A stretch of 28,706 nt of DNA from an uncultured Acidimicrobiaceae bacterium (lineage in GTDB: Bacteria; Actinomycetota; Acidimicrobiia; Spongiisociales; UBA5794), in contig CAZULI010000002.1 of the NCBI GenBank assembly GCA_964621095.1, forward strand, positions 1 through 28,706, given 5' to 3'. The notes below the pieces were generated by a model, which did no database searches, was not told where the DNA came from, and saw nothing but the letters and a program-made list of their open reading frames with translations. Shown here piece by piece: positions 2,898 to 22,152 of this stretch. How positions within the stretch are numbered: the stretch's first letter is position 1; each line of letters begins with the position of its first letter. A program made the translations under genes and the position numbers.

Positions 2898-2915
2898 AAC
2901 GCGGGACATACATCC

Positions 2916-4507: not shown

Positions 4508-6342
4508 TGAGAACGCGCCTCCTGGACCGGTGGGTACTGCCCTTGGGAGGGCAACTCGTGCTCCTCGCGGTTCTGGTGGCCGGGGGCATGCTCTATGCAT
4601 CAACCGGCGGGAGTGGGCGTGATCTTCTGGTGAACCAAATGTTCATCAACGCAATTCTCGTCGTTGGCCTTCAGGTGTACATGGGTAACACCGGGATCAT
4701 CAGCTTTGGACACATGGGGTTTGCCGCCATCGGTGGCTACGTGGTGATCCTGTTGGTGATGACTCCAACCATGAAGACGAACATCATCCCTGATGCGCCC
4801 ACGTGGATCGGCAACATCCAGATGGACCCATGGACCGCAACCGCCATCGCGATCGTGGTCGTACTCGTGTTCACCTTCATCGTCGGCTTGGGGTTGATCC
4901 GTGCCGTACGAGGTGCAGGCCCTGTCGCTGCCACCATGATCACGCTTGCACTCCTGTTCCTCGTACGTGAAGTGGCATCCAACTTTGTCTCCCTCACGGC
5001 TGGGAACCGTTCCGGGTTGGCGCTGGGTGCAGGGCAGGGCCTCAACGGGAGGGCCTGGATCTACGTTGGATTGATCTTCTCGGTTGTCGTTGCCCGCATG
5101 TTCCGTGAGAGCCGGCAGGGACGACTCGGTCAGGCGATGCGCGACGACGATCTGGCAGCCAGGGCGATGGGAGTCAATCCGGCGGTTCCCCACATGACCG
5201 CCTTGCTGTTGAGCGTGTTGATCATCACCGTGGGCGCGTCGCTACGGGTGCTCTCCCTCGGGTCGATGACACCGAACTTCTTCTTTTTCGATCTGACCCT
5301 CCTGACCCTTGCAATGTTGATCGTCGGTGGGCGCGGGAGCGTGACGGGCAGCATCGTGGGCGTCGCCGTGATCACGGTGGGAAATGAGGTCACCCGAGTC
5401 CTGGCAAGCGACTCGGTGACGGTGCCAGGTCTCAACTGGTTCCTGCGGCCCGGGCTGTCTGCCCTCTTCCTCGGTGGTGCGATGCTCGGGTTCATGTTGC
5501 TACGACCACAGGGCATCCTGGGTGACCGCGAACTCGAGGACCCGTTGCGGCGTCGCCTCAGAAAACTCGCTGAGCCGCCCGAACCACCGGTGAGCCTTCC
5601 GCATCCAGGTGATGCCAGGCTGGTCACCCGTGGGATCACGGTGCGGTTCGGCGGCTTCGTTGCGGTCGACGATGTCTCTCTCGAGGTGGGGGTCGGTGAG
5701 GTGGTGGGCCTCATCGGACCAAACGGAGCTGGCAAGACAACGCTGATCAACGCCATCACCGGCGTCATCCAGCCAACGGGTGGTACCTGGCGTCTTGGCG
5801 ATCATGACCTCGCGAGACTGTCGTCCTTCCAGGTGGCGCGGCGCGGTATTGCAAGGACGTTTCAGAATCTCAGATTGTTCAGCAACCTCACCGTGCGTGA
5901 GAACATCTCCGTTTCATCGATCGTTGCCGCCCGTCACCGCAAGGAACGCACGGTCCCCGATGGTGACGCGCTGATTTTTGCGGTGGGGTTGTGGGAGGAC
6001 CGGGAAAGTCGTGCCGGTGAGGTCAACTACGGCGCGGCCCGAAAGCTCGAACTGATACGAGCCGCAGCGCTGGCGCCCGAGATCCTCCTTCTCGACGAGC
6101 CGACCGCCGGCATGTGGGAGGAGGACTCGGTGGCCATGGTCACCCAGATCCGGCAGGTTGCTTCCTGGATCGGGGCGGGTGTCCTCGTCATCGACCATGA
6201 TCTCCACTTCATCACGGCGATTTGCGATCGGATCTATGTGCTCGACCAGGGGGAGATCATCGCCCACGGGACGGCCGCGGAGGTGAAGGCCGATCCGCGG
6301 GTCCAAGCTGCGTATCTCGGAACTGACGAGCCCGCCGACTGA
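4507..6342 (+). CDS. Fused ABC permease-ATPase (LivM-LivG-like)
   Basis: ATG 4507 overlaps the previous TGA. N-terminal permease (GIISFGHMGFAAIGGY; AMRDDDLAARAMGVN) is fused to an ATPase (GPNGAGKT, ILLLDEP, IDHD). Confidence 0.92.
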   Translation: MRTRLLDRWVLPLGGQLVLLAVLVAGGMLYASTGGSGRDLLVNQMFINAILVVGLQVYMGNTGIISFGHMGFAAIGGYVVILLVMTPTMKTNIIPDAPTWIGNIQMDPWTATAIAIVVVLVFTFIVGLGLIRAVRGAGPVAATMITLALLFLVREVASNFVSLTAGNRSGLALGAGQGLNGRAWIYVGLIFSVVVARMFRESRQGRLGQAMRDDDLAARAMGVNPAVPHMTALLLSVLIITVGASLRVLSLGSMTPNFFFFDLTLLTLAMLIVGGRGSVTGSIVGVAVITVGNEVTRVLASDSVTVPGLNWFLRPGLSALFLGGAMLGFMLLRPQGILGDRELEDPLRRRLRKLAEPPEPPVSLPHPGDARLVTRGITVRFGGFVAVDDVSLEVGVGEVVGLIGPNGAGKTTLINAITGVIQPTGGTWRLGDHDLARLSSFQVARRGIARTFQNLRLFSNLTVRENISVSSIVAARHRKERTVPDGDALIFAVGLWEDRESRAGEVNYGAARKLELIRAAALAPEILLLDEPTAGMWEEDSVAMVTQIRQVASWIGAGVLVIDHDLHFITAICDRIYVLDQGEIIAHGTAAEVKADPRVQAAYLGTDEPAD

Positions 6343-6377: not shown

Positions 6378-6412
6378 ACCGGTCGGGTGAAGTGGCCAAC
6401 CAAAGGAGATCG

Positions 6413-7192
6413 ATGGGAACATCGGGGATGAGACACGAGAACAAGAAAGCGTTCATCACCGGTGCCGGATCCGGTATCGGACGCGAGACCGCGTTGCGTC
6501 TCTCCCGGGAGGGGGCGGGCGTACTTGTCACCGACATCAACGCCGACTCCGCAGCGGAGACCGCACGTATGATCGAAGCCGAGGGCGGGTCGGCACTCCA
6601 CGCACGGATGGATGTGCGTGACCGAGCTGAGATCCAAGCAGCGGTCGCCATGGCAGACGATGCCTGGGGTGCCCTGCATCTTCTTGTCAACAACGCCGGT
6701 CTTGTGACGAAGCACTCGCTTGCTGATCTGACCGAGGAAGCGTGGGACCTCGTTCTGGATGTGAATCTCAAGGGTCAGTTCCTGGTCGCCCAGGAGGTCT
6801 CCAAGCTCATCGCCCGATCGGGGGGTGGTGCCATCGTCAACCTCTCGACGGTAGAGGCACTCGTCGTCGTCACCAGTGGCACCACCGCCCAGCCGCACTA
6901 CAACGCGAGCAAGGGCGGGGTTCCCATGCTCACGAAGGCACTGGCGGTTGAGCTTGCAAGCGCAAACATCCGGGTCAACTGTGTTGCGCCGGGCCCCGTG
7001 GCGACCGATTTCTTTGATTATGAAGCGGTGACAAGTGACGAGGCCCTCGAAGCGATGAAACAGCGTCTCCTGGTGCCACGAGTCGGGTTGCCAAGCGACA
7101 TAGCAGCGGCGATCTCCTGGCTCCTGTCCGACGACGCCTCCTACGTCGACGGCATCCAACTGCCGGTTGATGGAGGGTGGACGACACGGTGA
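6413..7192 (+). CDS. Short-chain dehydrogenase/reductase (classical SDR)
   Basis: TGAGSGIG, NNAG, catalytic YNASK, RVNCVAPG, C-terminal VDGGW; AAGGAG RBS before ATG 6413. Confidence 0.95.
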   Translation: MGTSGMRHENKKAFITGAGSGIGRETALRLSREGAGVLVTDINADSAAETARMIEAEGGSALHARMDVRDRAEIQAAVAMADDAWGALHLLVNNAGLVTKHSLADLTEEAWDLVLDVNLKGQFLVAQEVSKLIARSGGGAIVNLSTVEALVVVTSGTTAQPHYNASKGGVPMLTKALAVELASANIRVNCVAPGPVATDFFDYEAVTSDEALEAMKQRLLVPRVGLPSDIAAAISWLLSDDASYVDGIQLPVDGGWTTR

Positions 7193-8559
7193 ACGAGTAC
7201 CTCTTGGATCCATCCCAGATGGAGACCCTTGGCATTCGCACGGTCATCGTCGCGTCCCCCGATCTCGCCGGTCGTCTGATCGGGCGACGGGTACCCACGT
7301 CGCGCTTCCCACAGGTCGTGGAGAACGGCGTGGATGTCTGTTCCTGTGTCTTTGCTTGGGACGTCAACCAGGGGTTGGAGCTCCTGGAAACGAACGTGCT
7401 CCCCCTGTGCGGCCTGCACAACGGCCTCCCCGATGTCACCCTGCGGGTCGACCTCACGACGCTTCGTCGGGCGGCCTGGCTTGATGGGGTCGCCATTTGT
7501 TTTGCGGATCCGGTCGATGTGAAGACCGGTGACCCGCTCCCACTGTCGCCCCGAGTCATGCTCAAACAGGAGTTGGCGCGGTACGCCGAACTCGGGTACG
7601 CCCCCAAGACCGGAACGGAGTTGGAGTTCTACCTCTTTCTCAACGATCAGCGCACCCTGAGAGAGGAGGGGTTCCGGGGTCTGCGCCCAACGACGGTCGT
7701 CGCGTCCGATTTCATGATCCATGAGGGAAACGCGTACGAACCGTTTTTCCAGAAGCTCCGTAGCGATCTCGCCGAAAGTGGCGTCGATGTCGAGGCCGCC
7801 CAATCCGAGTTGGGTACCGGACAGTGGGAGATGACGTTTGTGTATGGCGATCCACTCGAGATGGCTGACCGCCACGCCTTGTACAAACTCGCCGTTCGCG
7901 ACGCGGCGATTGCTGCTGGGATGTCAGCGACGTTCATGGCGCGCCCTCTCAATGTCCAACCGGGGTCGTCATGTCATGTCCACCTCTCCCTGCAGTCCTT
8001 GGACGGGGAGCAGATGTTCTGGGATGACGTCGCCGATGACCGCATGAGCACCGTGATGCGCTCCGCCATTGGTGGGGTGTTGGAGCATGCACCAGAGTTC
8101 ATGGCTTGGTACGCGCCGACCGTCAACTCGTGGCGACGTACCGTCTCAACGGAGGCCGCAGGATGGGGCCGGACCTGGGGGTTTGACAACCGAACGGTCA
8201 CGGTTCGGGTCCTTGGCCACAAACCTCAGCATCTCCGACTCGAGTTCCGACTCCCCGGTGCGGACACCAACCCGTATCTGACCTTGTCGGCGCTGCTCGC
8301 TTCGGCACGCAGCGGCATCGCGTCCGGCACCGAGTTGATGGCTCCGGTGACCGGGAACGCGTACGACCTTCCGTACGACGAGGGGATGCCGACGTCATTG
8401 CATGAGGCAACATTGGCGTTCGAGTCGTCGCGCCTGGCTGCCGAGGCGTTCGGACGCGACGTCATCGACCATCATGTCGTGATGCTCAACCATGAGTGGT
8501 CCGTCTTCCTCGCTGAGGTCTCCGCGTGGGATCTCGATCGATACTTTGATCGCATCTGA
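7189..8559 (+). CDS. Glutamine synthetase-like gamma-glutamyl-amine ligase (GlnA4/PuuA type)
   Basis: GTELEFYLF, ELGTGQWEM, GSSCHVHLSL, DNRTVTVR, EFRLPGADTNPY; GTGA overlap with the SDR; lacks GSI-type N-terminal features. Confidence 0.88.
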   Translation: MNEYLLDPSQMETLGIRTVIVASPDLAGRLIGRRVPTSRFPQVVENGVDVCSCVFAWDVNQGLELLETNVLPLCGLHNGLPDVTLRVDLTTLRRAAWLDGVAICFADPVDVKTGDPLPLSPRVMLKQELARYAELGYAPKTGTELEFYLFLNDQRTLREEGFRGLRPTTVVASDFMIHEGNAYEPFFQKLRSDLAESGVDVEAAQSELGTGQWEMTFVYGDPLEMADRHALYKLAVRDAAIAAGMSATFMARPLNVQPGSSCHVHLSLQSLDGEQMFWDDVADDRMSTVMRSAIGGVLEHAPEFMAWYAPTVNSWRRTVSTEAAGWGRTWGFDNRTVTVRVLGHKPQHLRLEFRLPGADTNPYLTLSALLASARSGIASGTELMAPVTGNAYDLPYDEGMPTSLHEATLAFESSRLAAEAFGRDVIDHHVVMLNHEWSVFLAEVSAWDLDRYFDRI

Positions 8560-8563
8560 TCGG

Positions 8564-10021
8564 ATGGAACGCCACACGTTGACGCACCCCGATCTCGTCA
8601 CCTGGATCGGTGGCGTCCCAGAACTCAGCGCCATTGAGTCGGACGCTGCACTCTTCGATCCCAACACGTCGATCCCGCTCCAGGAGTTGAGATCGTCCTC
8701 TCCGGCACAGACCGACCGGGCCATTGCAGCAGCAGCGTTCGCCCATGAGGCGGGGGAGTGGCGACGGGGTGGCGCCGAGGCTCGCTCGGTGGCGCTGCAT
8801 GCGTTCGCCAAACGTCTTGACGAGATTGCTGACCGTGTTGCGGTGCTCGATGCGATCAACAGCGGGGTACCCATCTCGGTCACCCGCTTGTTTGCCGGAT
8901 CGATGGGGGGGACCGTGCGAGCCGCGGCCGACAGGGCAGTGTCGGTGGGGGACGTCGATACCCTTCCGGCGGACGGTCGCACGGTGCAGTTGCGCAAGGT
9001 GCCGTGGGGGCCGACAGCGTTGATCCTGCCGTGGAACGCTCCTTCCGCCATGGCCACCAAGAAACTCGCGTACTGCCTTGCTGCAGGCGCCACCGCGATC
9101 GTGAAACCATCCCCGATGTCACCGTGGAGCGCCCTCCTCATCGTGGAGGCGGCCCAGGACACCGGGCTCCCCCCAGGAGTGATCAATCTCGTCCTCGGTG
9201 GCCGCGAGGTCGGCGAACAGTTGGTCGGGGACCCTCGGATCCGCGCCATCGCCATGACCGGCTCGACCCCCACGGGGAGAGGGATTGCAGCGAGGGCCGC
9301 GGCCAATCTGACGAGAGTGCAGCTGGAGCTCGGGTCGAACAACGCGGCCATCGTGCGCGCTGATGCTGACCTCGGCGCCACGGCTGCCAGCCTTGCATCG
9401 GGTGCAATGAAACTCTCTGGTCAGTGGTGCGAAGCCCCCCGCCGAGTCCTCGTGGATCACACGATCCTTCCACAACTCGTTGACGCTCTGTGTGAGGCAC
9501 TGGCAGGGATGCGCCTCGGTTCGAGTCTGGAGGATGAGACCGAGATCGGTCCGGTGGCGTTTGAGGCCCGTCGTTCGGAACTGCGGTCACAACTCTCAGA
9601 ACTCGTCGCAGGGGGAGCACGGGCGATCGAAACGGGTACGCCACCGGACGCGGGTTGGTTCGTGTCACCGACGGTGGTTGTCGGTGAGGGCATGAACCCG
9701 GAGCAGGAACTCTTCGGGCCGATCATCACCGTGCAACCGACCCGGGGCGACGACGATGCGGTCGCCATGGGAAACCAGGGTCTTCATGGCCTCGCCGGGT
9801 ATGTCTACTCCGAGAACCTTGACGAGGCGATGGCGATCGGAGCCAAACTCGTGGCGGGCGAGGTGAAGGTGAACGGGTCAAGTGTGCTTGATCTCGCACC
9901 CGACGCCGTTCAGAGTTTCTTTGGGGGGAGTGGCATCGGCGGTCACGGTGATGCGGATCTCCTGGAGTTCTTCCGAGGTACCCAGGTGGTGGGTGTGGAG
10001 GCGCCGGGCCTGCCGATCTGA
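8564..10021 (+). CDS. NAD(P)-dependent aldehyde dehydrogenase (non-acylating ALDH superfamily)
   Basis: PWNAP, TGST, catalytic Glu in LELGSN, catalytic Cys in SGQWCEA, ELFGP; ATG 4 nt after the GS-like stop. Confidence 0.92.
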   Translation: MERHTLTHPDLVTWIGGVPELSAIESDAALFDPNTSIPLQELRSSSPAQTDRAIAAAAFAHEAGEWRRGGAEARSVALHAFAKRLDEIADRVAVLDAINSGVPISVTRLFAGSMGGTVRAAADRAVSVGDVDTLPADGRTVQLRKVPWGPTALILPWNAPSAMATKKLAYCLAAGATAIVKPSPMSPWSALLIVEAAQDTGLPPGVINLVLGGREVGEQLVGDPRIRAIAMTGSTPTGRGIAARAAANLTRVQLELGSNNAAIVRADADLGATAASLASGAMKLSGQWCEAPRRVLVDHTILPQLVDALCEALAGMRLGSSLEDETEIGPVAFEARRSELRSQLSELVAGGARAIETGTPPDAGWFVSPTVVVGEGMNPEQELFGPIITVQPTRGDDDAVAMGNQGLHGLAGYVYSENLDEAMAIGAKLVAGEVKVNGSSVLDLAPDAVQSFFGGSGIGGHGDADLLEFFRGTQVVGVEAPGLPI

Positions 10022-10039: not shown

Positions 10040-10079
10040 GTGTCCTGGTGCCACCGGTGGTTTCGGGCCACCAGGACAC
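10040..10079 (+). terminator. Inverted repeat after operon A (probable terminator)
   Basis: 11-bp perfect stem GTGTCCTGGTG (10040-10050) / CACCAGGACAC (10069-10079), about 20 nt after the ALDH stop and upstream of the next promoter. Confidence 0.6.
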
Positions 10080-10137: not shown

Positions 10138-10172
10138 TTGCATCCCTTTTGTATGCCGTGTACTGTATACAA
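10138..10172 (+). promoter_or_regulatory. sigma70-type promoter of operon B with overlapping putative GntR operator 3
   Basis: TTGCAT (10138-10143)-N17-TACTGT (10161-10166). GCCGTGTACTGTATACAA (10155-10172) is 14/18 identical to operator 2, in the same register to the -10 box. Confidence 0.65.
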
Positions 10173-10199: not shown

Positions 10200-11144
10200 A
10201 TGTGTGGAATTGCTGGTCGCATCCTTGACAAGCCGGGGCCCGTGGGCGCAGATCTTGTCGAGCTGATGCAGGCCCAGCGGCATCGGGGGGCCGACTCCAC
10301 CGGGTTTGCGCTGTACGGCACACCGCTTGAGTCGGGGTACCGCGTCGGGATGTTCCTTGATGATCGGTCCCAGGCCCCGAACGTCATTGACCGGTTCGGG
10401 CAGATCATGAACCGCCATGGTGCTGACATCGTGGAGACGCCGACCCTCAACGACGCGGACACACGCCACGGCGCACTCCGGTTCACGGTGTCGGAACCCG
10501 ACAGCCCGATCGCCGATTGGACGGCTGAGTGCGACACGATCGGGGGTACTGAACTCCTCTCGGTTGGGCGCTCACTTGAGATCGTCAAGGACGACGGGGA
10601 TGCAGCACAGGTGGCGGATCGCCACGGTGTGCGTGATTTCGTGGGAACGCACGGGACAGGTCACGCCCGACTTGCCACGGAGTCGGTCGTCTCACCCATC
10701 GCAAGCCACCCGTTCTGGGCGAGGCCGTTCCCGGATGTGGCCATCGTGCACAACGGCCAACTCACCAACTACTTCCTGTGGAGGAGACGCCTCGAGCATC
10801 AGGGGTACCGCTTCAGCACCGAGAACGATTCCGAGCTGATCGCCGTGTGGCTCTCTGACCAGATGAATTCGGGGACAACGCTTGAGGAATCCCTTCGGGC
10901 AAGCATCACTGCGCTTGACGGTGTGTTCACGTTCCTTCTGTCAACGTTTGATCAGATCGGGATGGCAAAGGATCGTCTCGCCATCAAGCCCATCGTCGCC
11001 GTTGAGACCAACAGCGAGGCCGCAATGGCGACCGAGGAACAAGCGATCCGGCACTTGTACGGGGGTGAGGTCGAACCGATCAACTACGACGGTCCGGGGA
11101 TGGTCAAGGTATGGCCGGTCAGCACAGGAGTTGGGGTGTCATGA
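10200..11144 (+). CDS. mgsA: Class II (Ntn) glutamine amidotransferase, N-methylglutamate synthase subunit A / GlxB-like
   Basis: N-terminal MCGIAG (Cys1 nucleophile), GHARLATES, HPF, HNGQLTN, TENDSE; AAGGAG RBS; followed by GXGXG and FMN subunits. Confidence 0.85.
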   Translation: MCGIAGRILDKPGPVGADLVELMQAQRHRGADSTGFALYGTPLESGYRVGMFLDDRSQAPNVIDRFGQIMNRHGADIVETPTLNDADTRHGALRFTVSEPDSPIADWTAECDTIGGTELLSVGRSLEIVKDDGDAAQVADRHGVRDFVGTHGTGHARLATESVVSPIASHPFWARPFPDVAIVHNGQLTNYFLWRRRLEHQGYRFSTENDSELIAVWLSDQMNSGTTLEESLRASITALDGVFTFLLSTFDQIGMAKDRLAIKPIVAVETNSEAAMATEEQAIRHLYGGEVEPINYDGPGMVKVWPVSTGVGVS

Positions 11145-11836
11145 GTGAGATCTTGGAGATCGAAGTCGGAGATCGACCGCTACGAGAAGTCAACGCCGAG
11201 ATTCGCACGGCGGTGGAGGAGGGCCGGGACGTCGTGCTCCACGACACACGCTCCCGCCACAACCTCGCGGTCGGGCTTCCACCGGGTGGCTCGGTGACGA
11301 TCCCCGGTGGCGTTGGGTACTACTGCGGTGGGCTCAACACGGGATCACGTGTCGCCATCGGCCGGAACGCCGGTTGGGGGCTGGGCGAGGCGATGTCGGC
11401 AGGGGAGATCGTCGTGGATGGCTACGCCGGGTTGGGCGTTGGTGCATCGATGCTTGGTGGTCTTGTCCATGTGAAAGGGGACGCCGGACCGAGGGCTGGG
11501 GTCGCGATGAAGGGCGGGGACATCGTGGTGGAAGGGTCCGTGGGGTTTCTGAGCGGGTTCATGGCCCATGCAGGCCGCATCATCGTTCTTGGCGATACGG
11601 AGGACGCGGCCGGGGATTCGTTGTGGGGCGGATGCATGTGGGTGGCAGGAAACGTTCAGTCCCTCGGTGTGGACTCCAAGCTGGTCGATCCTGACGCTGA
11701 CGAGGTGGACTCCGTCGAGGCACTGTTGACCGGTCTCGGGGTTGGTGACAGCAGTCGCTCGTGGAAAAAGATCGTGTCCGGACAGAAGCTCTGGCATTTT
11801 GACGCAAGGGATGCACAAGCATGGCTGATGATTTGA
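11141..11836 (+). CDS. mgsB: GXGXG (GltB/FmdC beta-helix) protein, N-methylglutamate synthase subunit B / GlxC-like
   Basis: Repeating Gly motifs (GRNAGWGLGEAMSAG, GDAGPRAGVAMKGG); ATGA overlap with mgsA. Confidence 0.85.
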   Translation: MSEILEIEVGDRPLREVNAEIRTAVEEGRDVVLHDTRSRHNLAVGLPPGGSVTIPGGVGYYCGGLNTGSRVAIGRNAGWGLGEAMSAGEIVVDGYAGLGVGASMLGGLVHVKGDAGPRAGVAMKGGDIVVEGSVGFLSGFMAHAGRIIVLGDTEDAAGDSLWGGCMWVAGNVQSLGVDSKLVDPDADEVDSVEALLTGLGVGDSSRSWKKIVSGQKLWHFDARDAQAWLMI

Positions 11837-13218
11837 ACAACACCACAGAGAGTCCCGTGATGCTGGAGGACGGGTCGAGTTCCGATCGTCCGGTCGGAAG
11901 TGTCTCGTCGTACGACCGTGGCAAATCAAGCAAGTGGACCCCCGAGTCGATCTCTGAGATCCAGGCCACCGCACAACTGGGTCGGTACGCCATTCGAGGG
12001 TTCTCGACGTTCCACAAGAATCTCCCATCGTTGGATGATCTGACGTTTGTTCCTGCAACACTCACGAGACTCCCCCTTGAGGGGTATCGGGAGGATTGCG
12101 ATGCAACAACGGTGCTCGGTGATCGCCCGGGCCTTGTTGAAAAGCCGATCGAGCTCGCCATCCCCGTGTACATCGCTTCGATGTCGTTCGGGGCTCTGTC
12201 GGCCTCCGCCAAGGCGGCGCTTGGCAAGGGTGCCTCCAAGGTGGGCACCATGACGTGTACCGGTGAGGGTGGGATGCTTGCCGAAGAGCGTGAAGCATCC
12301 GAGACGCTGGTGTACCAGATGACACCGTCACGGTACGGGCTGGACCTCGATCACCTCCGGCGTGCCGACGCCATCGAGATCGCCGTTGGCCAGGGAGCCA
12401 AACCGGGGACCGGCGGCGTCCTCCTGGGGATGAAGGTCTCCGAGCGTGTGGCAAAGATGCGCACCCTCCCCATGGGTGTTGATCAGCGCTCCACGGTGCG
12501 TCACCCCGATTTTCTCGGAGCCGATGACCTCCAGGTGAAGATCGAGGAACTGCGTGAGGCGGTCAATTACAAGGTTCCGATCTTCATCAAGATGGGGGCG
12601 ACGCGTCCCCGCTACGACGTCGCCCTTGCAGCAAAAGCCGGCGCCGACGTCATCGTCCTCGACGGCATGGAGGGCGGAACCAACGCCGCCCCCGAGATTC
12701 TGCTCGACCACACCGGCGTGCCAACGATGGCGGCGATCCGGGCAGGCCGTGAAGCACTCGAGGACGCCGGACTCGCCGACGACGTCAAACTCGTTGCTGC
12801 CGGGGGGATCCGGTCCGGGATTGATGCTGCGAAGGCACTTGCGCTCGGTGCGGACGCCGTCATGATCGGAACCGCCGCGAACATCGCGCTCGGGTGCAAC
12901 GCGCCACGGTACGTGAAGGATTACGAAGCCATCGGAACATCCCCTGGTCAGTGTCACCACTGCCACACGGGTCTCTGCCCGGTCGGCATCCAGACCCAGG
13001 ATCCCGAACTCGAAAAGCGAATGGATGTCGACGCCGGCGCCGAGCGGGTTGCCCGGTTCCTCACGGCGATGACGATGGAGATCACCTTGATCGCCAAGGC
13101 CTGCGGCAAGTCGAGTGTCCACAACCTGGAGCCGGAGGACCTCAGGGCGTTGTCCCTTGAGGCATCGGCGTTCACGGGAGTGGCTCTGGCGGGGATCGAT
13201 CGTCCATACACGTGGTAG
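11821..13218 (+). CDS. mgsC: FMN-binding glutamate synthase family protein, N-methylglutamate synthase subunit C / GlxD-like
   Basis: MSFGALS, TGEGG, GQGAKPGTGG, DGMEGGT, AAGGIRSG, Fe-S cysteines CHHCHTGLCPVGIQTQDP. Confidence 0.88.
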   Translation: MADDLNNTTESPVMLEDGSSSDRPVGSVSSYDRGKSSKWTPESISEIQATAQLGRYAIRGFSTFHKNLPSLDDLTFVPATLTRLPLEGYREDCDATTVLGDRPGLVEKPIELAIPVYIASMSFGALSASAKAALGKGASKVGTMTCTGEGGMLAEEREASETLVYQMTPSRYGLDLDHLRRADAIEIAVGQGAKPGTGGVLLGMKVSERVAKMRTLPMGVDQRSTVRHPDFLGADDLQVKIEELREAVNYKVPIFIKMGATRPRYDVALAAKAGADVIVLDGMEGGTNAAPEILLDHTGVPTMAAIRAGREALEDAGLADDVKLVAAGGIRSGIDAAKALALGADAVMIGTAANIALGCNAPRYVKDYEAIGTSPGQCHHCHTGLCPVGIQTQDPELEKRMDVDAGAERVARFLTAMTMEITLIAKACGKSSVHNLEPEDLRALSLEASAFTGVALAGIDRPYTW

Positions 13219-13249
13219 CGGATCACAGGCAAATGAATGGAGGCCGTCC

Positions 13250-14539
13250 ATGACTGACAAACTTCTCCCCGGGACACACACGATCATTCTCGGCATTGGC
13301 GACCTGTGTGGAATCCTGCGAGGGAAGCATCTTCAGGCATCGATGTGGGAGAAGATCTCGGACCACGGCATCGCGATGGCGAGCGCCATCTTCGTCTTTG
13401 ACATGACGTGTGACATCTGGGACACCCCGTTCTCCAACATGGACAACGGGTACCCGGACCTGTTCGTCACCCCGATCCCGGGAACGCTGCGACCGGTGCC
13501 ATGGGCTGAGGGCACCATGCTCGCCTTCGGCGCTGCGACCCAGGAGAACGGCTCTCCCATACCGACCGATCCACGTCGTGCGCTCCAGAATGTGCTCGCA
13601 CGGTATGACGAGCTGGAGTATCAGGTCAAGGTCGGTGTGGAACTCGAGTTCTTCCTCCTTGACCCCGAGACCAAGGCACCCAGGGACACGGGTGTCCAGG
13701 TCTACGGCGTCGCCCGCGGTGCTCAGTTCGAACATGTCCTCGGGCCGATCCGAAACCAATGCACCGAGTTCGGTATCCCCATCGAGGTCTCCAACCCCGA
13801 GTACTCGAGCGGTCAGTTCGAGGTCAACATCCGTTACGGCGATGCGTTGACGTCGGTGGACAACGCGGTCCTGTTCCGTAGCGCGGTCAAACAAATCGCC
13901 GCCGAGCACGGACTTCTCGCCACGTTCATGGCCAAACCGTTCACCCACGAGTCAGGGAACGGGTTCCATATCCACCAGTCCCTCTGGCAGGGCGACCGAA
14001 ACGTCTTTGCCGATGGGCACCAGCTCTCTGAGCTCGGTCGGCACTACGTCGGAGGACTCCGCCAGCACATGGCGGAGTTCACGCTGTTCGGTGCCCCCAC
14101 CCCCAACAGTTTCAAGCGCCGCGCCCCCTACACGTTCTGTCCCATGAACAACTCCTGGGGAGGCGACAACCGGACCGTCGGTATACGGGCGGTGGAGGGG
14201 CGCCCGGATGCGGTCCGCGTCGAACAGCGTGACGCGAGCGCCGAAGCCAACCCGTATCTCGTGGTCGCAGGACAACTGGTCGCAGGACTGCATGGCATGG
14301 AGGAGAAGCTTGATCCGGGGCCACGAAACAACGGTGACGCCTACGCCGACACGGAGGCCCAACCGCTCCCGATGTCCATCCCGGAGGCGGTGACGGCGTT
14401 GCGTGGCTCCAAGCTTGCCGCAGAGGCGTTTGACCCTCAACTCATTGAGGTCCTGATCCAGATGGCTGAGCGGGAGGAGATGTTCCTGCGCACGAACGTC
14501 ACCGATTTTGAACGGGACCGATACTTGGAGGTGTATTGA
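13250..14539 (+). CDS. Second glutamine synthetase-like gamma-glutamylamide synthetase (GmaS-position gene)
   Basis: [53 protein letters not shown]; GGAGG RBS. Confidence 0.88.
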
Positions 14540-14838
14540 TGCGTATTGCTCGCGTGGTTGGCACGGCAACCGGGTCGGTCAAGGACCCACCGTTGACGGG
14601 CCAGACACTTCTCATCGTCGAGCCCGTGGATGCCCGTGGCGGGTCCATCGGGCCTCACGAGGTCGCCACCGACGCTGGAGTCGGCGCTGGGATCGGCGAC
14701 TGGGTTCTGATGGCGACGGGTTCGTCGGCGCGTCAACCCGGCTCGACACGGGGTGTGGCAACGGACGCTTCCGTTGTCCTCATTCTCGAGGAGCTCAAGT
14801 TGGGCGCCGAGACGACGTACCGCAGCGGTTTGCAATGA
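14539..14838 (+). CDS. BMC vertex pentamer protein (BMC-P, EutN/CcmL family)
   Basis: [15 protein letters not shown]...LLIVEP...[24 protein letters not shown]...DASVVLI is the EutN/CcmL pattern; TGATG coupling to the GS-like gene. Confidence 0.95.
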
Positions 14839-14912: not shown

Positions 14913-15206
14913 ATGGCGGATCAGTCGAAAATGGCATTGGGCATGGTGGAAACGAAGGGGATGGCTGCAGCGACCGAAGCTGCGGACGCGATGCTCAAGG
15001 CCGCCAATGTGGAGCTCACCAGCTACGTGCAGGTTGGCGGAGGTCTCGTGACGGTGTTTATCCGGGGCGAGGTTGGTGCGGTCAAGGCGGCAACGGACGC
15101 AGGCGCCGTTGCGGCGAGCAAGATCGGTGATGTCCAGTCCGTCCACGTCATCGCCCGGCCCCATGACGAACTCCCGAACGTCATGTCCTACATCACCAGC
15201 GCCTGA
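14913..15206 (+). CDS. BMC shell hexamer (BMC-H, EutM/PduA/CcmK family)
   Basis: [22 protein letters not shown]...[23 protein letters not shown]...VHVIARPH. An alternative in-frame ATG at 14835 would add 26 aa. Confidence 0.96.
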
Positions 15207-15246: not shown

Positions 15247-16632
15247 GTGGACGCCGACCTGCGAAGCATCGCTCACGCCCGGGATTGTGCCGAACGCGCC
15301 AGCGTCGCGTTCGGTCAATTTCGTGGTGCCTCGCAGGAGGCCATTGACCGGATCGTTGAGGCAATGGCACGGGCAGCGGTCAGGGAGGCGGGGAGGCTTG
15401 GCGCCCTGGCAGCCGAAGAGACGGGGTACGGCAACGCCGAGGACAAGCGGATGAAGAACATCTACAACGCCCTGGGCGTTGCGGAGTGGCTTCGCAACGT
15501 GCGCACCGTCGGCGTGCTCTGGAAGGATGAGCGCACCAAGGTGATGGCGATCGGTGAGCCCATGGGGATCATCGCGGCGCTGATTCCGGTGACCAACCCG
15601 ACAGCGACGGTGATCTTCAAGGCGCTGAGTGCCGTCAAGGCAGGGAACGCGATCATCTGTGCCCCGCACCCGCGGGGTGTTCGCTCCGGGGTGGAGACGA
15701 CAGCGGTCCTTGCGGCTGCTGCCACCGAGGCGGGCGCGCCGCCCAACCTGGTTCAGTGTCTGAGCGAGGTCACCCTTGAAGCCACCTCCGAGTTGATGCG
15801 ACATCGCAAGACCTCGCTGGTGATGGCGACCGGTGGTGCTGACATGGTGCGGGCCGCGTACTCCTGTGGAAAGCCGACCCTCGCGGTTGGACCGGGGAAC
15901 GTGCCGGTGTACGTGGATGCGTCCAAACGTCACGAGCTTGAGGAGGTTGCCGAACAGATCCTCACCTCAAAGGCGTTCGACAACGGCACGGCGTGTGTGG
16001 CCGAACAAGCCGTGGTTGCCCACCGTGAGATCGCCCGTCCGCTTCGGGATGCGTTCAGAGCCAAAGGTGCGTATTTCTGCACCCCGTCCCAGGCCGAAGC
16101 CCTTGCCAAGGTGATGTTCAACGAACGAGGTGGACAGATCCCCACCCGAGTGGCGCAATCAGCCGCCAGGCTTGCCGAGTTGGCGGGGTTTGATGTGCCG
16201 ATGCGCACGCGGGTGCTCGTGGCTGACGCGTCAGAGGTGGGGAGAAACACTCCGCTCTCGCGGGAGAAACTCAACCCTGTGCTTGCGTTCTACGAGGTGG
16301 GATCGGTGGATGAGGGGTACCGCCTCTGTGAGGCGGTCCTGAACTTTGGTGGCCTCGGTCACAGTGCTGCGGTCCACACCGATGACGCCACGGTCAAGGC
16401 GCAGTTCTCCATGCTGCCGGTCGGCAGGCTGTTGATCAACACCCCGTGTGCGCTCGGTGGCATGGGGTACTCGACCGATCTCGAGCCAAGCTTCATGCTC
16501 GGTACCGGGACCTGGTCCGGATCGATTGTGTCTGACAACGTGACGGCGCTTCACTTGATCAACATCAAGCGGATCGCCGAAGAGACGCGGCCGTGGCGGA
16601 GTTTTGGTGAAATTGAAAGGACAATTCGATGA
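15247..16632 (+). CDS. CoA-acylating aldehyde dehydrogenase (EutE/PduP/AdhE-N family)
   Basis: PVTNPTAT, ATGGADMVRAAYSCGKP, VGPGNVP, catalytic SKAFDNGTACVAEQ, REKLNPVL, SFMLGTG; GGGAGG RBS. Confidence 0.93.
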   Translation: MDADLRSIAHARDCAERASVAFGQFRGASQEAIDRIVEAMARAAVREAGRLGALAAEETGYGNAEDKRMKNIYNALGVAEWLRNVRTVGVLWKDERTKVMAIGEPMGIIAALIPVTNPTATVIFKALSAVKAGNAIICAPHPRGVRSGVETTAVLAAAATEAGAPPNLVQCLSEVTLEATSELMRHRKTSLVMATGGADMVRAAYSCGKPTLAVGPGNVPVYVDASKRHELEEVAEQILTSKAFDNGTACVAEQAVVAHREIARPLRDAFRAKGAYFCTPSQAEALAKVMFNERGGQIPTRVAQSAARLAELAGFDVPMRTRVLVADASEVGRNTPLSREKLNPVLAFYEVGSVDEGYRLCEAVLNFGGLGHSAAVHTDDATVKAQFSMLPVGRLLINTPCALGGMGYSTDLEPSFMLGTGTWSGSIVSDNVTALHLINIKRIAEETRPWRSFGEIERTIR

Positions 16633-17255
16633 CAGGATCCAGGACCGATATCCGGGCGCTGATGCAGATCGATCGGTTGCAGCCCCGGTTTGCGGCGTAC
16701 AGCGCGGCAACCGTGCGAGGCTCCATCCCCCTTGAGGGCGACACCTTGCTCGTTGGTGAGATCGCCCCTGGGAACGCCGTGTTCCAGATCGTCGACATCG
16801 CGCTGAAGGCCGCTGAGATCGAGTCGGTGTCCCAGATCGTGGAACGCGAGTTCGGGTTCTTCATGCTCCGGTCGCCGGTCAACACCTCGATCTCGATCGC
16901 CCGTGACGCGATCCTGGAGTATCTCGGCGCAGAGATGTCGGATCGGATGAAACCGAAGGTCGAAAGCACACAACGCATCACGTCGGTGGAACCCCATCAG
17001 GCCAAGCTGCTCAACATCTGGCGGCAGGGGTCACTCGTCATCCCCGGAAGCACCCTCGGGATGCTTGAGTGTTCACCCGCTGCCTACATCACGATCGCCG
17101 CCAATGAGGCAGAGAAGGCGGCAGACGTCGACATCGTCGAAGTCAGGGCGTTGGGTCGGTTCGGACGAATGTTCATCGCAGGAACCCAGGACAGTGTCAG
17201 CACAGCCCTTGATGCTGCCACGGCCGCCATCGAAGGGACGGATGGCCGTTCATGA
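16629..17255 (+). CDS. BMC trimer shell protein (BMC-T, CcmP-like double-stacking type)
   Basis: IDRLQPRFAAY...GEIAPG...DIALKA...VEREFG and second domain SPAAYITIAANEAEKAADV...GRFGRMFIAG resemble CcmP / Haliangium BMC-T; ATGA overlap with the AldDH. Confidence 0.9.
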   Translation: MTGSRTDIRALMQIDRLQPRFAAYSAATVRGSIPLEGDTLLVGEIAPGNAVFQIVDIALKAAEIESVSQIVEREFGFFMLRSPVNTSISIARDAILEYLGAEMSDRMKPKVESTQRITSVEPHQAKLLNIWRQGSLVIPGSTLGMLECSPAAYITIAANEAEKAADVDIVEVRALGRFGRMFIAGTQDSVSTALDAATAAIEGTDGRS

Positions 17256-18424
17256 ACGTCATTGGAGAACACGATGTGAGGGCAGCAGCGGCCCGCAGCG
17301 ACGTGATCGTCGTTGGTCCGAACGATCTCCTGACACCCAACGCTCGGGATCTGGTCGCCCAGCTCGGACTGCGGATCGTTGCCCAACCGGTTGAAGCCGT
17401 CTCCACCAACGCCCCCGATCACGCGACCGCAGTGAGGCGTGTTCTGTTGCGCCGATCCCCGAAGTGGATTGCTCCCCAAGCGAAGGGTTCCACCACCGAG
17501 AGACCGTTTGAGCGGATCGCGATGGTCGGTTGCGGCGCGGTGGGCGCCGCAACCGCACACCTTGCGGCTGCCCGCCAGGCCGCCAAGAGCCTCGCACTCA
17601 TCGATCTCGTGCCAGGTCTCGCTTCAAGCACGGCTCTTGACATCGAACACGCCTCCGGCATCACGGGTTCCCCCACCACGTGCGTCGGTGGGGAGACAAT
17701 GGATCTCATCGCGGACGCCGATGTCGTGGTGGTGACCGCCGGCAAGCCACGGTCCCCTGGGATGCCACGGGCCGATCTGCGCGACATCAACGCCAAGGTG
17801 ATCGGGGGAGTCGCGGCAGCCGTCCAGGAGTACGCGCCCAACGCGGTCCTCATCGTGGTGACGAACCCGCTCGATGAGATGACGTACGAAGCGTTCCGGT
17901 CCACCGACCTCCCACGCGAACGAGTCCTTGGTATGGCAGGGACCCTCGATTCAAGCCGGTTCCGCTGGGCGTTGGCGACCGAAGCCAAGGTGCACCCGCG
18001 TGATGTGTCAGCGTTCACCCTTGGGAGTCACGGGGATGAGATGGTGCCGATTCTCTCCCTTGCAACCATCAAGGGTCGCCCGGTGACTGAGGTTCTCCCC
18101 AAGGACGCGATTGAACGGTGCGTCCAGGAGACCGTCCATGGGGGCGGCCGCGTCGTTGCCCTACGGCGGACCGGATCGGCGTCGATTGCACCTGCCCACT
18201 CCATCGTTGAGATTCTCGACGCCATGCGCGGTGTGATACCGGGACCCATTCCCGTGTCGGTCGTCCTGCAGGGTGAGTACGGCATCAAGGATGTTGTGGT
18301 GGGTGTTCCCGTTCAACTCGGGATGGGTGGTTTGGAGCGGATCGTGGAGATGCCGCTCAGTGAGGCTGAGCTCAAGATGCTCCGGGAAGCGGCAAGCGTC
18401 GTGAAGGGGCGAATGGTCCAATGA
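17252..18424 (+). CDS. mdh: Malate dehydrogenase (LDH/MDH superfamily) with ~87-aa N-terminal extension
   Basis: GCGAVG, LID, TAGKPRSPGMPRADL (Arg at the MDH specificity position), VTNPLD, GMAGTLDSSRF, GSHGD; extra N-terminal domain containing LLTPNARD. Confidence 0.85.
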   Translation: MNVIGEHDVRAAAARSDVIVVGPNDLLTPNARDLVAQLGLRIVAQPVEAVSTNAPDHATAVRRVLLRRSPKWIAPQAKGSTTERPFERIAMVGCGAVGAATAHLAAARQAAKSLALIDLVPGLASSTALDIEHASGITGSPTTCVGGETMDLIADADVVVVTAGKPRSPGMPRADLRDINAKVIGGVAAAVQEYAPNAVLIVVTNPLDEMTYEAFRSTDLPRERVLGMAGTLDSSRFRWALATEAKVHPRDVSAFTLGSHGDEMVPILSLATIKGRPVTEVLPKDAIERCVQETVHGGGRVVALRRTGSASIAPAHSIVEILDAMRGVIPGPIPVSVVLQGEYGIKDVVVGVPVQLGMGGLERIVEMPLSEAELKMLREAASVVKGRMVQ

Positions 18425-18443: not shown

Positions 18444-19760
18444 ATGAACAACGAAGAAATGCTTTCCGAAATACTCGATGAGCTGAAGAGTTGGAGGGAG
18501 AAGGAGGACGGCTCCCCCCGCATGAGCCAAGCTGAGGCGAAGGCGACGTATCAGGCCGGGTTCGAACGTGCCGTGGATCCCTCACGGCGGGCCCACAAGG
18601 CTGGCAGTCTCAAGGTCACCATCCTCGGCGGTGGCAACGGCGGCATGGCCATGGCTGGCCACATGGCGATTCTTGGCTACGAGATCACCATGTGGTCCCC
18701 GTTCTCGTGGGAGCTTGAACCGATCGAGGAGAAGGGGGGAGTCTCGATCATCGGTTCAGAAGTCTCCGGATTCGGCAAGGTGGCAAAAGTCACCCCCAGC
18801 ATTGATCTGGCGGTCAAAGGCGCCGATCTGATCATGATCATCGCCCCAGCAATGGCACACAAGACGTACGCCTCGATGCTGGCGCCGTTGCTGCGTGACG
18901 GTCAGGTCGTGGTGCTCAACCCGGGACGTACCGGCGGCTCGTTGGAGTTCGCCCGGACCCTCACACGAAACGCGTGTTCAGCGCGGATCGTCCTCGGTGA
19001 GACCCAGACGTTCATTTACGCCGCTGAACGCAAGGATGCGTACACCGTCGAGATCCTCAAGGAGAAGTTCCGGATGCGGGCTGCAGCGCTTCCGGCAGCG
19101 GACAACGATCTTCTGATGGATCCGTTGCGTGATCTGTATCCACAGATCGAACCTGCCCAGAACGTCCTGGAGACCGGACTCAACAATGTAGCACCCGTCG
19201 TGCACCCCGGCACGGTGCTCCTGAACACCTCGGTGCTTGAGCGCACGGCGGCAGGCGAGCCGCTCAAGTTCTACCAGGATCAGGTGACGCCGACGATCGC
19301 CACTCTCATCATGGGAAAGCTTGACCAGGAGAAGCAGAACGTTGCCAAAGCCCTCGGCCTCAAGGAGGTCTGGTCGCTGCTTGACTGGTACCGGGAGAGC
19401 TACCACATCGTGGGTGACTCGATCTTTGAGGTCATCCGAGCCAACCCGTACATTGCGGGGTTCACCGCTCCAAGCAACATCCTGGCCCAGAACCACGTCC
19501 TCGACGATGTTCCCAACTCACTGGTCCCGATCTCAGATTTCGGCAAGGTGCTCGGCGTGGCCACACCAACCATCGACTCGATCGTCCACCTCGCAAGCGC
19601 CATGTGTTCGATTGATTGGTGGGAGGAGGGCAGAACGGTGAGCGGTCTCGGGTTGGGTGGCATGTCCATTGACCACATGATCGAGCACGTTGAACGCACG
19701 GCTCTCGGCGGGAAGTGCTCGGAGTCCGGTGTGTGCCGTGCCTTCGGGTTCTACAAGTAG
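18444..19760 (+). CDS. NAD/NADP opine (octopine/nopaline) dehydrogenase family protein with ~55-aa N-terminal extension
   Basis: ILGGGNGG, LNPGRTGG, ETQTFIYA, LNNVAPVVHPG, DWYRESY, DDVPNSLVP, GVATPTIDSIVHLAS; GGAGG RBS. Confidence 0.87.
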   Translation: MNNEEMLSEILDELKSWREKEDGSPRMSQAEAKATYQAGFERAVDPSRRAHKAGSLKVTILGGGNGGMAMAGHMAILGYEITMWSPFSWELEPIEEKGGVSIIGSEVSGFGKVAKVTPSIDLAVKGADLIMIIAPAMAHKTYASMLAPLLRDGQVVVLNPGRTGGSLEFARTLTRNACSARIVLGETQTFIYAAERKDAYTVEILKEKFRMRAAALPAADNDLLMDPLRDLYPQIEPAQNVLETGLNNVAPVVHPGTVLLNTSVLERTAAGEPLKFYQDQVTPTIATLIMGKLDQEKQNVAKALGLKEVWSLLDWYRESYHIVGDSIFEVIRANPYIAGFTAPSNILAQNHVLDDVPNSLVPISDFGKVLGVATPTIDSIVHLASAMCSIDWWEEGRTVSGLGLGGMSIDHMIEHVERTALGGKCSESGVCRAFGFYK

Positions 19761-19763
19761 GGG

Positions 19764-20108
19764 ATGGCCGTGATGCAAGAGTTCTCGGGTCGACCCGTCA
19801 TCTCGGGGGAGCAGATCGAAGCAGCCGCCGAGATGGGACGTTCAGAACTGGTGATCCCTGCTGGCGCCCTCATCACGCCGCTGGCACACGAGCGGGCAGC
19901 CGCGTTGGGCATCTCTCTCAGCTCAAGCGTTGCTCCCGATCGTCACGCCGGCCACGCCGCCAGAAGAGCAGCGACGCAGGCCAAGGCGAGAGAGATCGTG
20001 GCGCGGGTGGTGGCCGCCCGGGGTGGTGACCCATCGATGGTCGATGACATGGTCAAGACCGTGATGGAGCGCATGTCGAGTAGCTGCAAGTGTGGCGATC
20101 ACCGGTAG
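19764..20108 (+). CDS. Small BMC-associated hypothetical protein (ITPxA module plus C-terminal amphipathic helix)
   Basis: Starts 3 nt after the opine DH stop. N-terminal VISGEQIEAAA...ALITPLAHERAAALGISL; C-terminal MVDDMVKTVMERM. Confidence 0.8.
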   Translation: MAVMQEFSGRPVISGEQIEAAAEMGRSELVIPAGALITPLAHERAAALGISLSSSVAPDRHAGHAARRAATQAKAREIVARVVAARGGDPSMVDDMVKTVMERMSSSCKCGDHR

Positions 20109-20199: not shown

Positions 20200-20460
20200 C
20201 TAGTAGCGCGGGCGGCGCTCCTGGCGTTCCTGTGCTTCGTTCACACGGAGGTTGCGTCCGTCCATGTCCTCGCCGTCAAGTTCCTGCATCGCCTTGCGGG
20301 CAAGATCGTCTGACATCTCCACAAACGCAAAACCGCGTGAGCGGCCCGTTTCGCGGTCGGTGATCAGGGCAACGGAGTCAACCGTACCGATCGCCTCAAA
20401 CCTCGTGCGCACTGATTCTTCAGTTGCACTCCATGGGAGGTTTCCCACGTATAGTCTCAT
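20200..20460 (-). CDS. RNA-binding protein (single RRM domain)
   Basis: RNP2 LYVGNL, RNP1 RGFAFVEM, DRETGRS, GRNLRVNEA; ATG 20460 with GGAG upstream (86 aa). Confidence 0.93.
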   Translation of the reverse strand: MRLYVGNLPWSATEESVRTRFEAIGTVDSVALITDRETGRSRGFAFVEMSDDLARKAMQELDGEDMDGRNLRVNEAQERQERRPRY

Positions 20461-22102: not shown

Positions 22103-22123
22103 CCCGATTGCGGCACGGGCGAC

Positions 22124-22152
22124 CTGCCGGCAGCAGAATCAGACGCTATCGT
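22124..22152 (+). promoter_or_regulatory. Putative promoter giving a (near-)leaderless boxC transcript
   Basis: CTGCCG (22124-22129)-N17-TATCGT (22147-22152); GTG start 8 nt downstream with no SD sequence. Confidence 0.45.

Follow-up and report, generated by a model that had tools for sequence, protein, structure and literature searches.

A glutamate-carrier module that is encoded without the dehydrogenase expected to resolve its product raises the question of which other enzyme could take over this step. Such a case is found in a stretch of 28,706 nucleotides from an uncultured Acidimicrobiaceae bacterium (contig CAZULI010000002.1 of assembly GCA_964621095.1, forward strand; the whole stretch is called the window below), in which genes resembling the N-methylglutamate synthase genes mgsABC and the glutamine synthetase (GS)-like ligase gene gmaS are directly followed by genes of a bacterial microcompartment (BMC). 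Our answer, in which we place about as much confidence as doubt, is that a primary amine is oxidised on a glutamate carrier in a route coupled to a microcompartment of the MIC2 type. Within the shell, an opine-dehydrogenase-like enzyme probably replaces the usual step of the flavoprotein N-methylglutamate dehydrogenase (Mgd, encoded by mgdABCD). The pathway proposal appears to be new, while MIC2 as a locus type is already known.

The window has a G+C content of 60–65% and a single long array of plus-strand genes, which extends from about 1.6 to 20.1 kb, as judged from Pfam and NCBIfam matches and inspection of the start codons. Its core operon is composed of the following genes:

10200–11144, plus strand: MgsA-like class-II glutamine amidotransferase with N-terminal Cys (GATase_6/GATase_7; starts MCGIAG)
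11141–11836, plus strand: MgsB-like GXGXG protein (PF01493, 4e-12)
11821–13218, plus strand: MgsC-like protein with a flavin mononucleotide (FMN) glutamate-synthase domain and a CxxCxxxxCP triad (PF01645 Glu_synthase, 3.8e-95)
13250–14539, plus strand: GS-like ligase 2, candidate gamma-glutamyl-amide synthetase (Gln-synt_C, 9.6e-92)
14539–14838, plus strand: BMC-P pentamer protein (EutN_CcmL, 2.3e-21)
14913–15206, plus strand: BMC-H hexamer protein (BMC domain, 4.3e-26)
15247–16632, plus strand: acylating (CoA-dependent) aldehyde dehydrogenase (NCBIfam matches to the AdhE N-terminal half and EutE type)
16629–17255, plus strand: BMC-T tandem-domain CsoS1D/CcmP-like shell protein (BMC domain; CcmP model 185.6 bits, below cutoff)
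17252–18424, plus strand: malate dehydrogenase (MDH) resembling lactate dehydrogenase (LDH), with an N-terminal extension of ~85 residues (NF004863, 323.8 bits vs cutoff 283)
18444–19760, plus strand: opine-dehydrogenase-family protein, candidate signature enzyme (Octopine_DH domain)
19764–20108, plus strand: conserved protein of 114 residues (no Pfam or NCBIfam match; end of the operon)

The genes of the operon are translationally coupled by overlaps of one and four bases, and GGAGG precedes most of the starts. The mgsB-like start and the mgsA-like stop share an ATGA, and the BMC-P ATG at 14539 shares one base with the TGA of ligase 2. The four-gene module had been placed at 10200–14539 by an earlier sequence-only reading of this DNA, and these limits are exact, 10200 being the ATG of the amidotransferase gene and 14539 the last base of the ligase stop codon. 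Also in agreement with that reading, BMC genes lie directly downstream (BMC-P at 14539 with the one-base overlap, BMC-H at 14913 and BMC-T at 16629).

Is this front end that of the N-methylglutamate pathway? The Pfam domains of all four genes confirm mgsABC-like genes and a GS-like ligase in the order mgsABC-gmaS, with a Cys1 amidotransferase, a GXGXG protein and an FMN glutamate-synthase domain as the three synthase subunits beside the ligase. The same order is found in the mgsABC-gmaS operon of Methylobacterium extorquens DM4 (PMC6237917) and in the annotated plasmid clusters of Paracoccus aminophilus and Methylobacterium. This four-gene front end is shared with the pathway of M. extorquens DM4, Methylocella, Paracoccus and Aminobacter, and a regulator of the FCD family, as present in the window, also stands near some canonical clusters. 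The MCGIAG start is kept in all relatives and in canonical MgsA. As canonical references we used Acidithiobacillus caldus mpAca1.1 (L090; L numbers denote the loci compared), with purU, mgdABCD, glnT, mgsABC and folD together in one block, and an Acinetobacter plasmid (L092) with mgd, amt, glnT and mgsABC. A phmmer search with MgdA/B/D, SoxG, FolD and PurU of these two references against all six-frame open reading frames (E<=1e-6) gave no match, either in the window or up to 10 kb from any related locus, and Pfam scans of all plausible window genes revealed no DAO/Sox-type flavoprotein. The claim that Mgd/Sox, FolD and PurU are missing from the window is thereby borne out. Where the canonical clusters have Mgd, the window has a protein of the opine dehydrogenase family together with a shell and its acylating aldehyde dehydrogenase.

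A second difference concerns the four proteins themselves. Identity to the canonical proteins is 33–37% for MgsA, 37–40% for MgsB and 55–59% for MgsC, and ligase 2 is 29–38% identical to GlnT of five canonical clusters; among canonical proteins the values are 45–52%, 53–59% and 70–73% for MgsA, MgsB and MgsC and 42–65% for the ligase. A divergence comparison revealed that ligase and amidotransferase have not diverged further than MgsC from the canonical proteins (ratios of 0.73–0.82 to the within-canonical identities), and we therefore draw no argument about amine specificity from it. In a neighbour-joining tree Mgd-linked MgsC form one clade including a Streptomyces plasmid copy, and the dehydrogenase-linked copies, that of the window among them, fall outside; because the Mgd-linked clade includes the Streptomyces copy, this split is not purely taxonomic. 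The GlnT/GmaS equivalog model TIGR03105 (cutoff 469.6) is passed neither by ligase 2 (246.3 bits) nor by ligase 1, a second GS-like ligase encoded further upstream (213 bits). Ligase 2 lies in a clade of dehydrogenase-linked ligases apart from GlnT, and ligase 1 is 31% identical to it and belongs to a separate clade. All four window proteins stand outside the Mgd-linked clades, and with a ligase score of 246 bits and an MgsC of this position the label "N-methylglutamate", which the sequence-only reading had given to the module, is not supported.

The CxxCxxxxCP triad of the MgsC-like protein (12900–12960, residues about 360–380) resembles the 3Fe-4S site of glutamate synthase. All alignable dehydrogenase-linked MgsC (one partial copy is gapped) retain the triad, as does the canonical MgsC of A. 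caldus; the canonical MgsC of alpha- and gammaproteobacteria and of Streptomyces have YDDWxxGxDP in its place. Therefore, canonical N-methylglutamate synthases come in two cofactor flavours. The A. caldus reference itself (strain ATCC 51756, megaplasmid, 147499–158661) is a complete purU-mgdABCD-glnT-mgsABC-folD cluster flanked by ISL3 transposases, in an organism that is an obligate sulfur-oxidising autotroph.

Which gene travels with the module instead of mgd was analysed by comparison of neighbourhoods. A search with the Octopine_DH-domain protein at E<=1e-10 yielded 912 homologues; among those with a name, the nearest (87% identity) come from metagenome-assembled genomes (MAGs) of Acidimicrobiia. 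An orthologous locus with an 87%-identical dehydrogenase is found, for example, on contig DIDS01000033.1 of GCA_002418265.1. Neighbourhoods were taken from assemblies and from 80 loci of reference genomes and were annotated by phmmer with the window proteins. Two subfamilies were distinguished: a ligase-linked one of 34 non-redundant loci, with at least about 48% identity to the dehydrogenase of the window, and a sister subfamily of 56 loci with at most 42% identity. A GS-like neighbour is present in 30/34 ligase-linked loci and in 1/56 sister loci, an Mgs-like neighbour in 24/34 and 1/56, and a shell gene in 19/34 and 1/56. The two apparent exceptions in the sister subfamily are truncated fragments of the ligase-linked one, and three of the four ligase-linked loci without ligase are limited by their contigs. 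The trio of Mgs-like genes occurs in 18 of the 19 shell loci, the exception being a 4.9-kb contig. As the same arrangement recurs in many genomes, the observation in the window is not a chance pattern.

The ligase-linked loci span Acidimicrobiia, Thermoleophilia/Gaiellales, Deltaproteobacteria/Thermodesulfobacteriota and Thermoanaerobacteraceae, and trio and ligase form a conserved unit with shell genes in at least three phyla. Among uncultured Actinomycetota of soil and sediment the module is widespread; among eight homologue clusters no cultured host was found, every organism-named member being a MAG. Some of the related loci also carry acyl-CoA dehydrogenases, short-chain dehydrogenases (SDRs) or E1/E2 of a 2-oxoacid dehydrogenase. 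Four loci contain dehydrogenase, ligase and trio without any shell (L005, L007, L024, L097), and the dehydrogenase is therefore tied to the amine module and not to the shell. From this gene distribution the shell and the acylating aldehyde dehydrogenase can be read as an optional add-on to the amine module. The link between the ligase-linked opine-dehydrogenase subfamily and the Mgs-like module appears to be new.

These data also bear on the simplest alternative, an ordinary N-methylglutamate pathway for methylamine with mgdABCD and the folate genes elsewhere in the genome and the BMC as a functionally separate neighbour. It would account for gene order and domains equal to mgsABC-gmaS and for the comparatively high MgsC identity, gma, mgs and mgd are known from actinobacteria that use methylamine (PMC5023230), and the search for mgd in this genome covered the window only. 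We nevertheless give it little credence: the adjacency of trio, ligase and shell is kept across phyla, down to the stop–start overlap of ligase and BMC-P genes in the window, ligase 2 and MgsC group away from their Mgd-linked counterparts, and the dehydrogenase accompanies the module even where a shell is absent. Furthermore, a few dehydrogenase-linked loci have a GlnT-like ligase (L007, L025, L029, L030), which together with the actinobacterial gma/mgs/mgd users argues that the window module is not simply an "actinobacterial form".

What kind of enzyme is the dehydrogenase? It matches N-(1-D-carboxyethyl)-L-norvaline dehydrogenase (CENDH, 1BG6) of Arthrobacter with 1.4e-65 and also octopine dehydrogenase (OcDH, 3C7A) of Pecten. 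The AlphaFold2 model (mean predicted local distance difference test score, pLDDT, 87.6) superimposes on 1BG6 with a TM score of 0.91 and a root-mean-square deviation of 2.5, and octopine dehydrogenase and then staphylopine, yersinopine and pseudopaline dehydrogenases are the next structural matches. With these opine dehydrogenases (1BG6, 3C7A) it shares the two-domain fold, ~33–40% identity to CENDH and the catalytic pair, as His stands at the CENDH H202 column and Asp or Glu at the D297 column in all members. To our knowledge, all characterised members of the opine dehydrogenase family make or break a secondary amine C–N bond.

The lower-ranked structural matches include ketopantoate and mandelate reductases, which share the 6PGDH-like C-terminal fold of the dehydrogenase, and this is one of two points in favour of a further alternative, in which the dehydrogenase is a keto- or hydroxy-acid reductase for cofactor balance, and ligase and trio assimilate ammonia or glutamine in a GS/glutamate synthase-like manner, taking up nitrogen from an unrelated aldehyde reaction in the shell. 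The other point is that the domains are indeed those of glutamine synthetase and glutamate synthase. Of all explanations considered we give this one the least credence, since a true opine dehydrogenase is the closest match in sequence and structure and the His/acid pair is kept, the loci hold no other conserved candidate for generating the aldehyde, and a GltD-type reductase partner of the trio is missing in most of them.

The window protein also differs from the opine dehydrogenases, by an added targeting helix and Cys pair and by the replacement of two residues. The first of these is Asn at the column of CENDH R292 and OcDH R324, where all ~56 members of the sister subfamily have Arg; every alignable ligase-linked member has Asn or His, and one truncated copy is gapped. 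We considered the switch from Arg to Asn as the loss of a binder of the keto-acid carboxylate, which would have pointed to an aldehyde as partner. This idea was dropped, as the Arg of OcDH is described as a sensor of the NADH pyrophosphate (PMC2924402), and therefore the switch is kept only as a marker of the subfamily. The second residue follows strand beta2 and is Asp in the NAD-specific CENDH, Asn-Arg in the sister subfamily and Ser, with no Arg nearby, in the window protein.

At the N-terminus, residues 3–21 are predicted to form an amphipathic helix (0.9% of shuffles reach the observed moment), followed by a linker of low confidence, and helix and linker are present only in the shell-linked copies. 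As modelled, this helix has the form of a BMC encapsulation peptide. At the C-terminus, the last 20 codons encode a Cys pair (CxxxxxC) within G-x-C-x-E-x-G-V-C-R, which was compared in the window protein, L001–L028 and L093–L095. The pair is found in 22/22 shell-linked copies and also in L011 and L017, which are truncated contigs in which no shell genes were seen; in the other copies without shell linkage both positions are Ala or Thr, or the tail is missing. In this low-confidence tail, the two Cys could form a disulfide, a metal site or a shell contact.

The shell genes themselves belong to a BMC type that has been catalogued as MIC2, with 22 loci and without function (Sutter et al. 2021, Nat Commun, Supplementary Data 2; PMC8217296), a correspondence that the sequence-only reading missed. 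The components listed for MIC2 are an aldehyde dehydrogenase without targeting peptide, nearest to that of MIC1 and then of RMM1, a pfam02866 LDH/MDH with an N-terminal extension of ~70 residues, a protein of the 6PGDH-like superfamily with a short N-terminal helix and a pfam00120 glutamine-synthetase-like protein; the ligase is thus listed, the trio of amidotransferase, GXGXG and FMN protein is not mentioned in the entry, and the hosts are mostly Proteobacteria together with two Actinobacteria (PMC8217296). The window locus is of the MIC2 type, as every feature listed is present. In detail, the short helix is that of the opine-dehydrogenase-family protein, and CsoS1D_N is recorded on orthologues of the BMC-T shell protein. 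The aldehyde dehydrogenase (15247–16632) has 461 residues and its alignment to the AdhE/EutE-type models begins at residue 2–10, so that a targeting extension is absent. It resembles acetaldehyde and propionaldehyde enzymes and scores 473 bits for the AdhE N-terminal half and 466 bits for the EutE type, both below the equivalog cutoffs. In the malate dehydrogenase Ldh_1_N starts at residue 88 of 390, and the extension in front of it is kept in orthologues; the enzyme is above the cutoff of an NCBIfam MDH subfamily and, as read from the sequence, has Arg at the LDH Gln102 position. In contrast to the catalogue, the relatives compared here are mainly uncultured Acidimicrobiia and Thermoleophilia and several are without LDH/MDH. 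A later characterisation of MIC2 was not found in the literature.

The N-terminal extension of the malate dehydrogenase (17252–17530) and the 114-residue protein have a motif of ~50 residues in common (...AAA...(V/I)(V/I)P...L(I/L)TP.A...A..LG(I/L); BLASTP E 0.004). Neither matches Pfam, and the 114-residue protein is present in L001, L008, L010–L016 and L018.

Domain scans of the operon genes detected neither a PduL/Pta phosphotransacylase nor an alcohol dehydrogenase domain; malate dehydrogenase is present instead. The operon thus differs from the complete core of PDU and EUT metabolosomes, which recycle CoA and NAD+ by phosphotransacylase and alcohol dehydrogenase. An amine-derived aldehyde that meets an acylating aldehyde dehydrogenase in a shell is, by contrast, a feature in common with RMM (Mycobacterium, Rhodococcus; amino-alcohol catabolism) and EUT (ethanolamine). 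RMM uses a kinase and a phospholyase and EUT a B12 ammonia-lyase, whereas here dehydrogenation of an N-substituted glutamate is proposed.

How could these parts work together? The catalytic steps, their regiochemistry and the class of amine are deduced here from gene content, gene order, conservation, fold and targeting features. The first step would take place in the cytosol, where ligase 2 would join the amine to the gamma-carboxyl group of glutamate at the expense of ATP. The Mgs-like trio would turn the gamma-glutamyl amide into an N-substituted glutamate, by analogy with the action of N-methylglutamate synthase on methylamine. The N-substituted glutamate would then enter the shell, where the opine-dehydrogenase-family enzyme would oxidise the C–N bond on the side of the substituent with NAD(P)+, giving back glutamate and releasing an aldehyde. 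The acylating aldehyde dehydrogenase would trap the aldehyde as acyl-CoA, and the encapsulated malate dehydrogenase, where present, would re-oxidise NADH. For the dehydrogenase, an aldehyde as carbonyl partner in place of a 2-oxo acid would be a departure from the known opine dehydrogenases. We rejected operation in the reverse, biosynthetic direction, since the ligase step depends on ATP and is in effect irreversible.

The sequence-only reading had proposed an NAD-linked encapsulated step in place of Mgd and an exit of the carbon as acyl-CoA. For the first claim there is now a dinucleotide-dependent candidate with a predicted targeting helix and comparative support, and its specificity for NAD could not be upheld, as the beta2 Asp of the NAD-specific relative is absent. 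The second is plausible because an acylating aldehyde dehydrogenase is encoded in the same operon.

Several points weigh against the proposed route. Known opine dehydrogenases oxidise the carboxylate-bearing carbon, and with this usual regiochemistry an N-alkylglutamate would be cleaved to 2-oxoglutarate and amine, which is a futile loop; it is the context of shell and aldehyde dehydrogenase alone that argues for attack on the substituent side. The route would produce two NAD(P)H per turn, but no phosphotransacylase is present in any shell locus, and malate dehydrogenase is absent from 6 of 18 full-length shell loci. Ser in place of the beta2 Asp points to neither NAD nor NADP. Some loci have ligases but no trio within 10 kb (L021–L023, L040, L054, L096), and the transporters of the loci are of the amino-acid type and give no pointer to a simple alkylamine. 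Finally, the Fisher test for the association with the ligase (p = 2e-18) overstates independence, as do the other Fisher p-values, because the loci are phylogenetically related.

In an alternative order of steps, the dehydrogenase would act first. The compound taken up would be a secondary amine or an opine-like N-substituted amino acid, which the encapsulated enzyme would split; the resulting aldehyde would be passed on to acyl-CoA, and the nitrogen of the other product, a primary amine or amino acid, would be captured by ligase and trio. It is the making and breaking of opines that defines the family, ABC or APC transporters of the amino-acid type are encoded, the regulator is of the FCD type, and several loci have ligases and dehydrogenase without the trio. 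FCD-type regulators usually sense carboxylates. Despite this we consider such an order rather unlikely, as the N-substituted glutamate made by the trio would be left without a resolving enzyme and would be a dead end unless another dehydrogenase exists, and the trio alongside the dehydrogenase in 24/34 loci and 18/19 shell loci would go unexplained.

If oxidation on the glutamate carrier is correct, the carrier logic of the N-methylglutamate pathway reaches beyond C1 metabolism, there is a second, flavoprotein-independent way of resolving N-alkylglutamates, and the reaction type would be new to the opine dehydrogenase family. We know of MIC2 as one of many catalogued BMC types that have an aldehyde dehydrogenase and no known signature enzyme for generating the aldehyde; it now has a named candidate for this enzyme and a substrate class, primary amines carried on glutamate. 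The module may also matter for the turnover of amines in the environment. Our search of the literature for a link between microcompartments and opine dehydrogenase, N-methylglutamate or higher N-alkylglutamates retrieved nothing relevant.

With respect to the amine, methylamine is probably not the substrate at the window locus, judging from a ligase that is not of the GlnT type, from the similarity of the aldehyde dehydrogenase to acetaldehyde and propionaldehyde enzymes and from the acyl-CoA dehydrogenases, SDRs or 2-oxoacid dehydrogenase subunits encoded at related loci; more likely candidates are an amino alcohol or an alkylamine of two or more carbons. No specific NCBIfam model is matched by the APC permeases or by the binding protein, so that the transporters do not name a substrate. 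Solved ligase structures were of no help either, the nearest being uncharacterised or diverse, with anilide and methylamine ligases among them. A wider version of the proposal, which we regard as a long shot, would make the subfamily a general oxygen-independent, dinucleotide-linked N-substituted-glutamate dehydrogenase in place of Mgd and would provide a methylamine route without Mgd: the variants with a GlnT-type ligase, L025 from Deltaproteobacteria, which has shells, and L007, would oxidise N-methylglutamate, and formaldehyde would be confined in the microcompartment and leave as formyl-CoA.

The shell-less locus L007 (ENA ERZ27286875, contig k119_605169, 900–13100) carries an MTTB-family methyltransferase, a corrinoid protein and a RACo activase next to the trio, a GltD-like reductase, a second FMN domain, the GlnT-like ligase and the dehydrogenase. 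This gene set suggests a link to anaerobic methylated-amine metabolism. In the Thermoleophilia/Gaiellales loci L005, L093, L096 and L097, a B12-dependent diol dehydratase and its reactivase as well as Peptidase_S58 and Ada/AlkA/Ogt genes are found within a few kb of the dehydrogenase. The diol dehydratase neighbours could be a functional link to hydroxy-aldehydes or just synteny of the lineage; an amino-alcohol substrate deduced from them was dropped, as the loci represent one lineage sharing the unrelated Ada/AlkA neighbours.

Upstream of the core operon, an insert block with an ABC transporter, an SDR, ligase 1 and an aldehyde dehydrogenase lies between the regulator and the amidotransferase gene, from which it is separated by a gap of 178 bases:

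612–1310, minus strand: GntR/FCD-family regulator (NCBIfam GntR-family matches; orthologue, phmmer 370 bits to L001)
1550–1564, plus strand: operator-like repeat GTATACCGTATTCAA, 47 nt before the binding-protein ATG
1611–6342, plus strand: Liv-type ABC uptake system (Peripla_BP_6, ABC_tran and BPD_transp_2 domains; starts and Shine-Dalgarno sequences inspected), comprising the next four genes
1611–2897, plus strand: ABC lipoprotein binding protein
2916–3623, plus strand: ABC ATPase
3620–4507, plus strand: ABC permease
4507–6342, plus strand: ABC permease-ATPase fusion
6392–7192, plus strand: SDR, accessory (adh_short_C2, 2.8e-61)
7219–8559, plus strand: GS-like ligase 1, accessory candidate gamma-glutamyl ligase (Gln-synt_C, 9.2e-90)
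8564–10021, plus strand: non-acylating aldehyde dehydrogenase, accessory (Aldedh, 1.2e-101; NCBIfam matches all below cutoff)
10158–10172, plus strand: operator-like repeat GTGTACTGTATACAA, 28 nt before the mgsA-like ATG

The block is absent from the closest relatives, in which the regulator orthologue stands directly upstream of the mgsA-like gene; the ABC system, for example, is missing in L001 and L008. Besides the site that precedes the mgsA-like gene, the window has just one further match to it, the repeat GTATACCGTATTCAA, with 0.06 expected by chance, and related GTAYWC repeats are found upstream of the mgsA-like gene in six relatives from Acidimicrobiia (L001, L008, L010, L012, L013, L014). 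This suggests that both blocks, each preceded by such a GntR-type operator-like site, belong to one regulon, perhaps for a hydroxylated or bifunctional amine, which we take as a lead only. The SDR, ligase 1 and the aldehyde dehydrogenase (6392–10021), overlooked by the sequence-only reading, resemble gamma-glutamyl routes for amino alcohols or polyamines. Just past the stop codon of this aldehyde dehydrogenase lies a perfect 11-bp inverted repeat without T-run (10040–10079; GTGTCCTGGTG ... CACCAGGACAC).

Directly downstream of the core operon, aerobic benzoyl-CoA genes occupy 20771–25249, with equivalog matches to BoxC (870 bits, cutoff 712) and BoxB (847 bits, cutoff 499) and a divergent PaaK-like CoA ligase; this block is not kept beside the locus in relatives. 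The Rfam scan of the window revealed no riboswitch, and its sole match is a tRNA gene (27813–27885, minus strand). A small RRM-domain RNA-binding protein (RRM_1, 1.8e-19) is encoded on the minus strand at 20200–20460.

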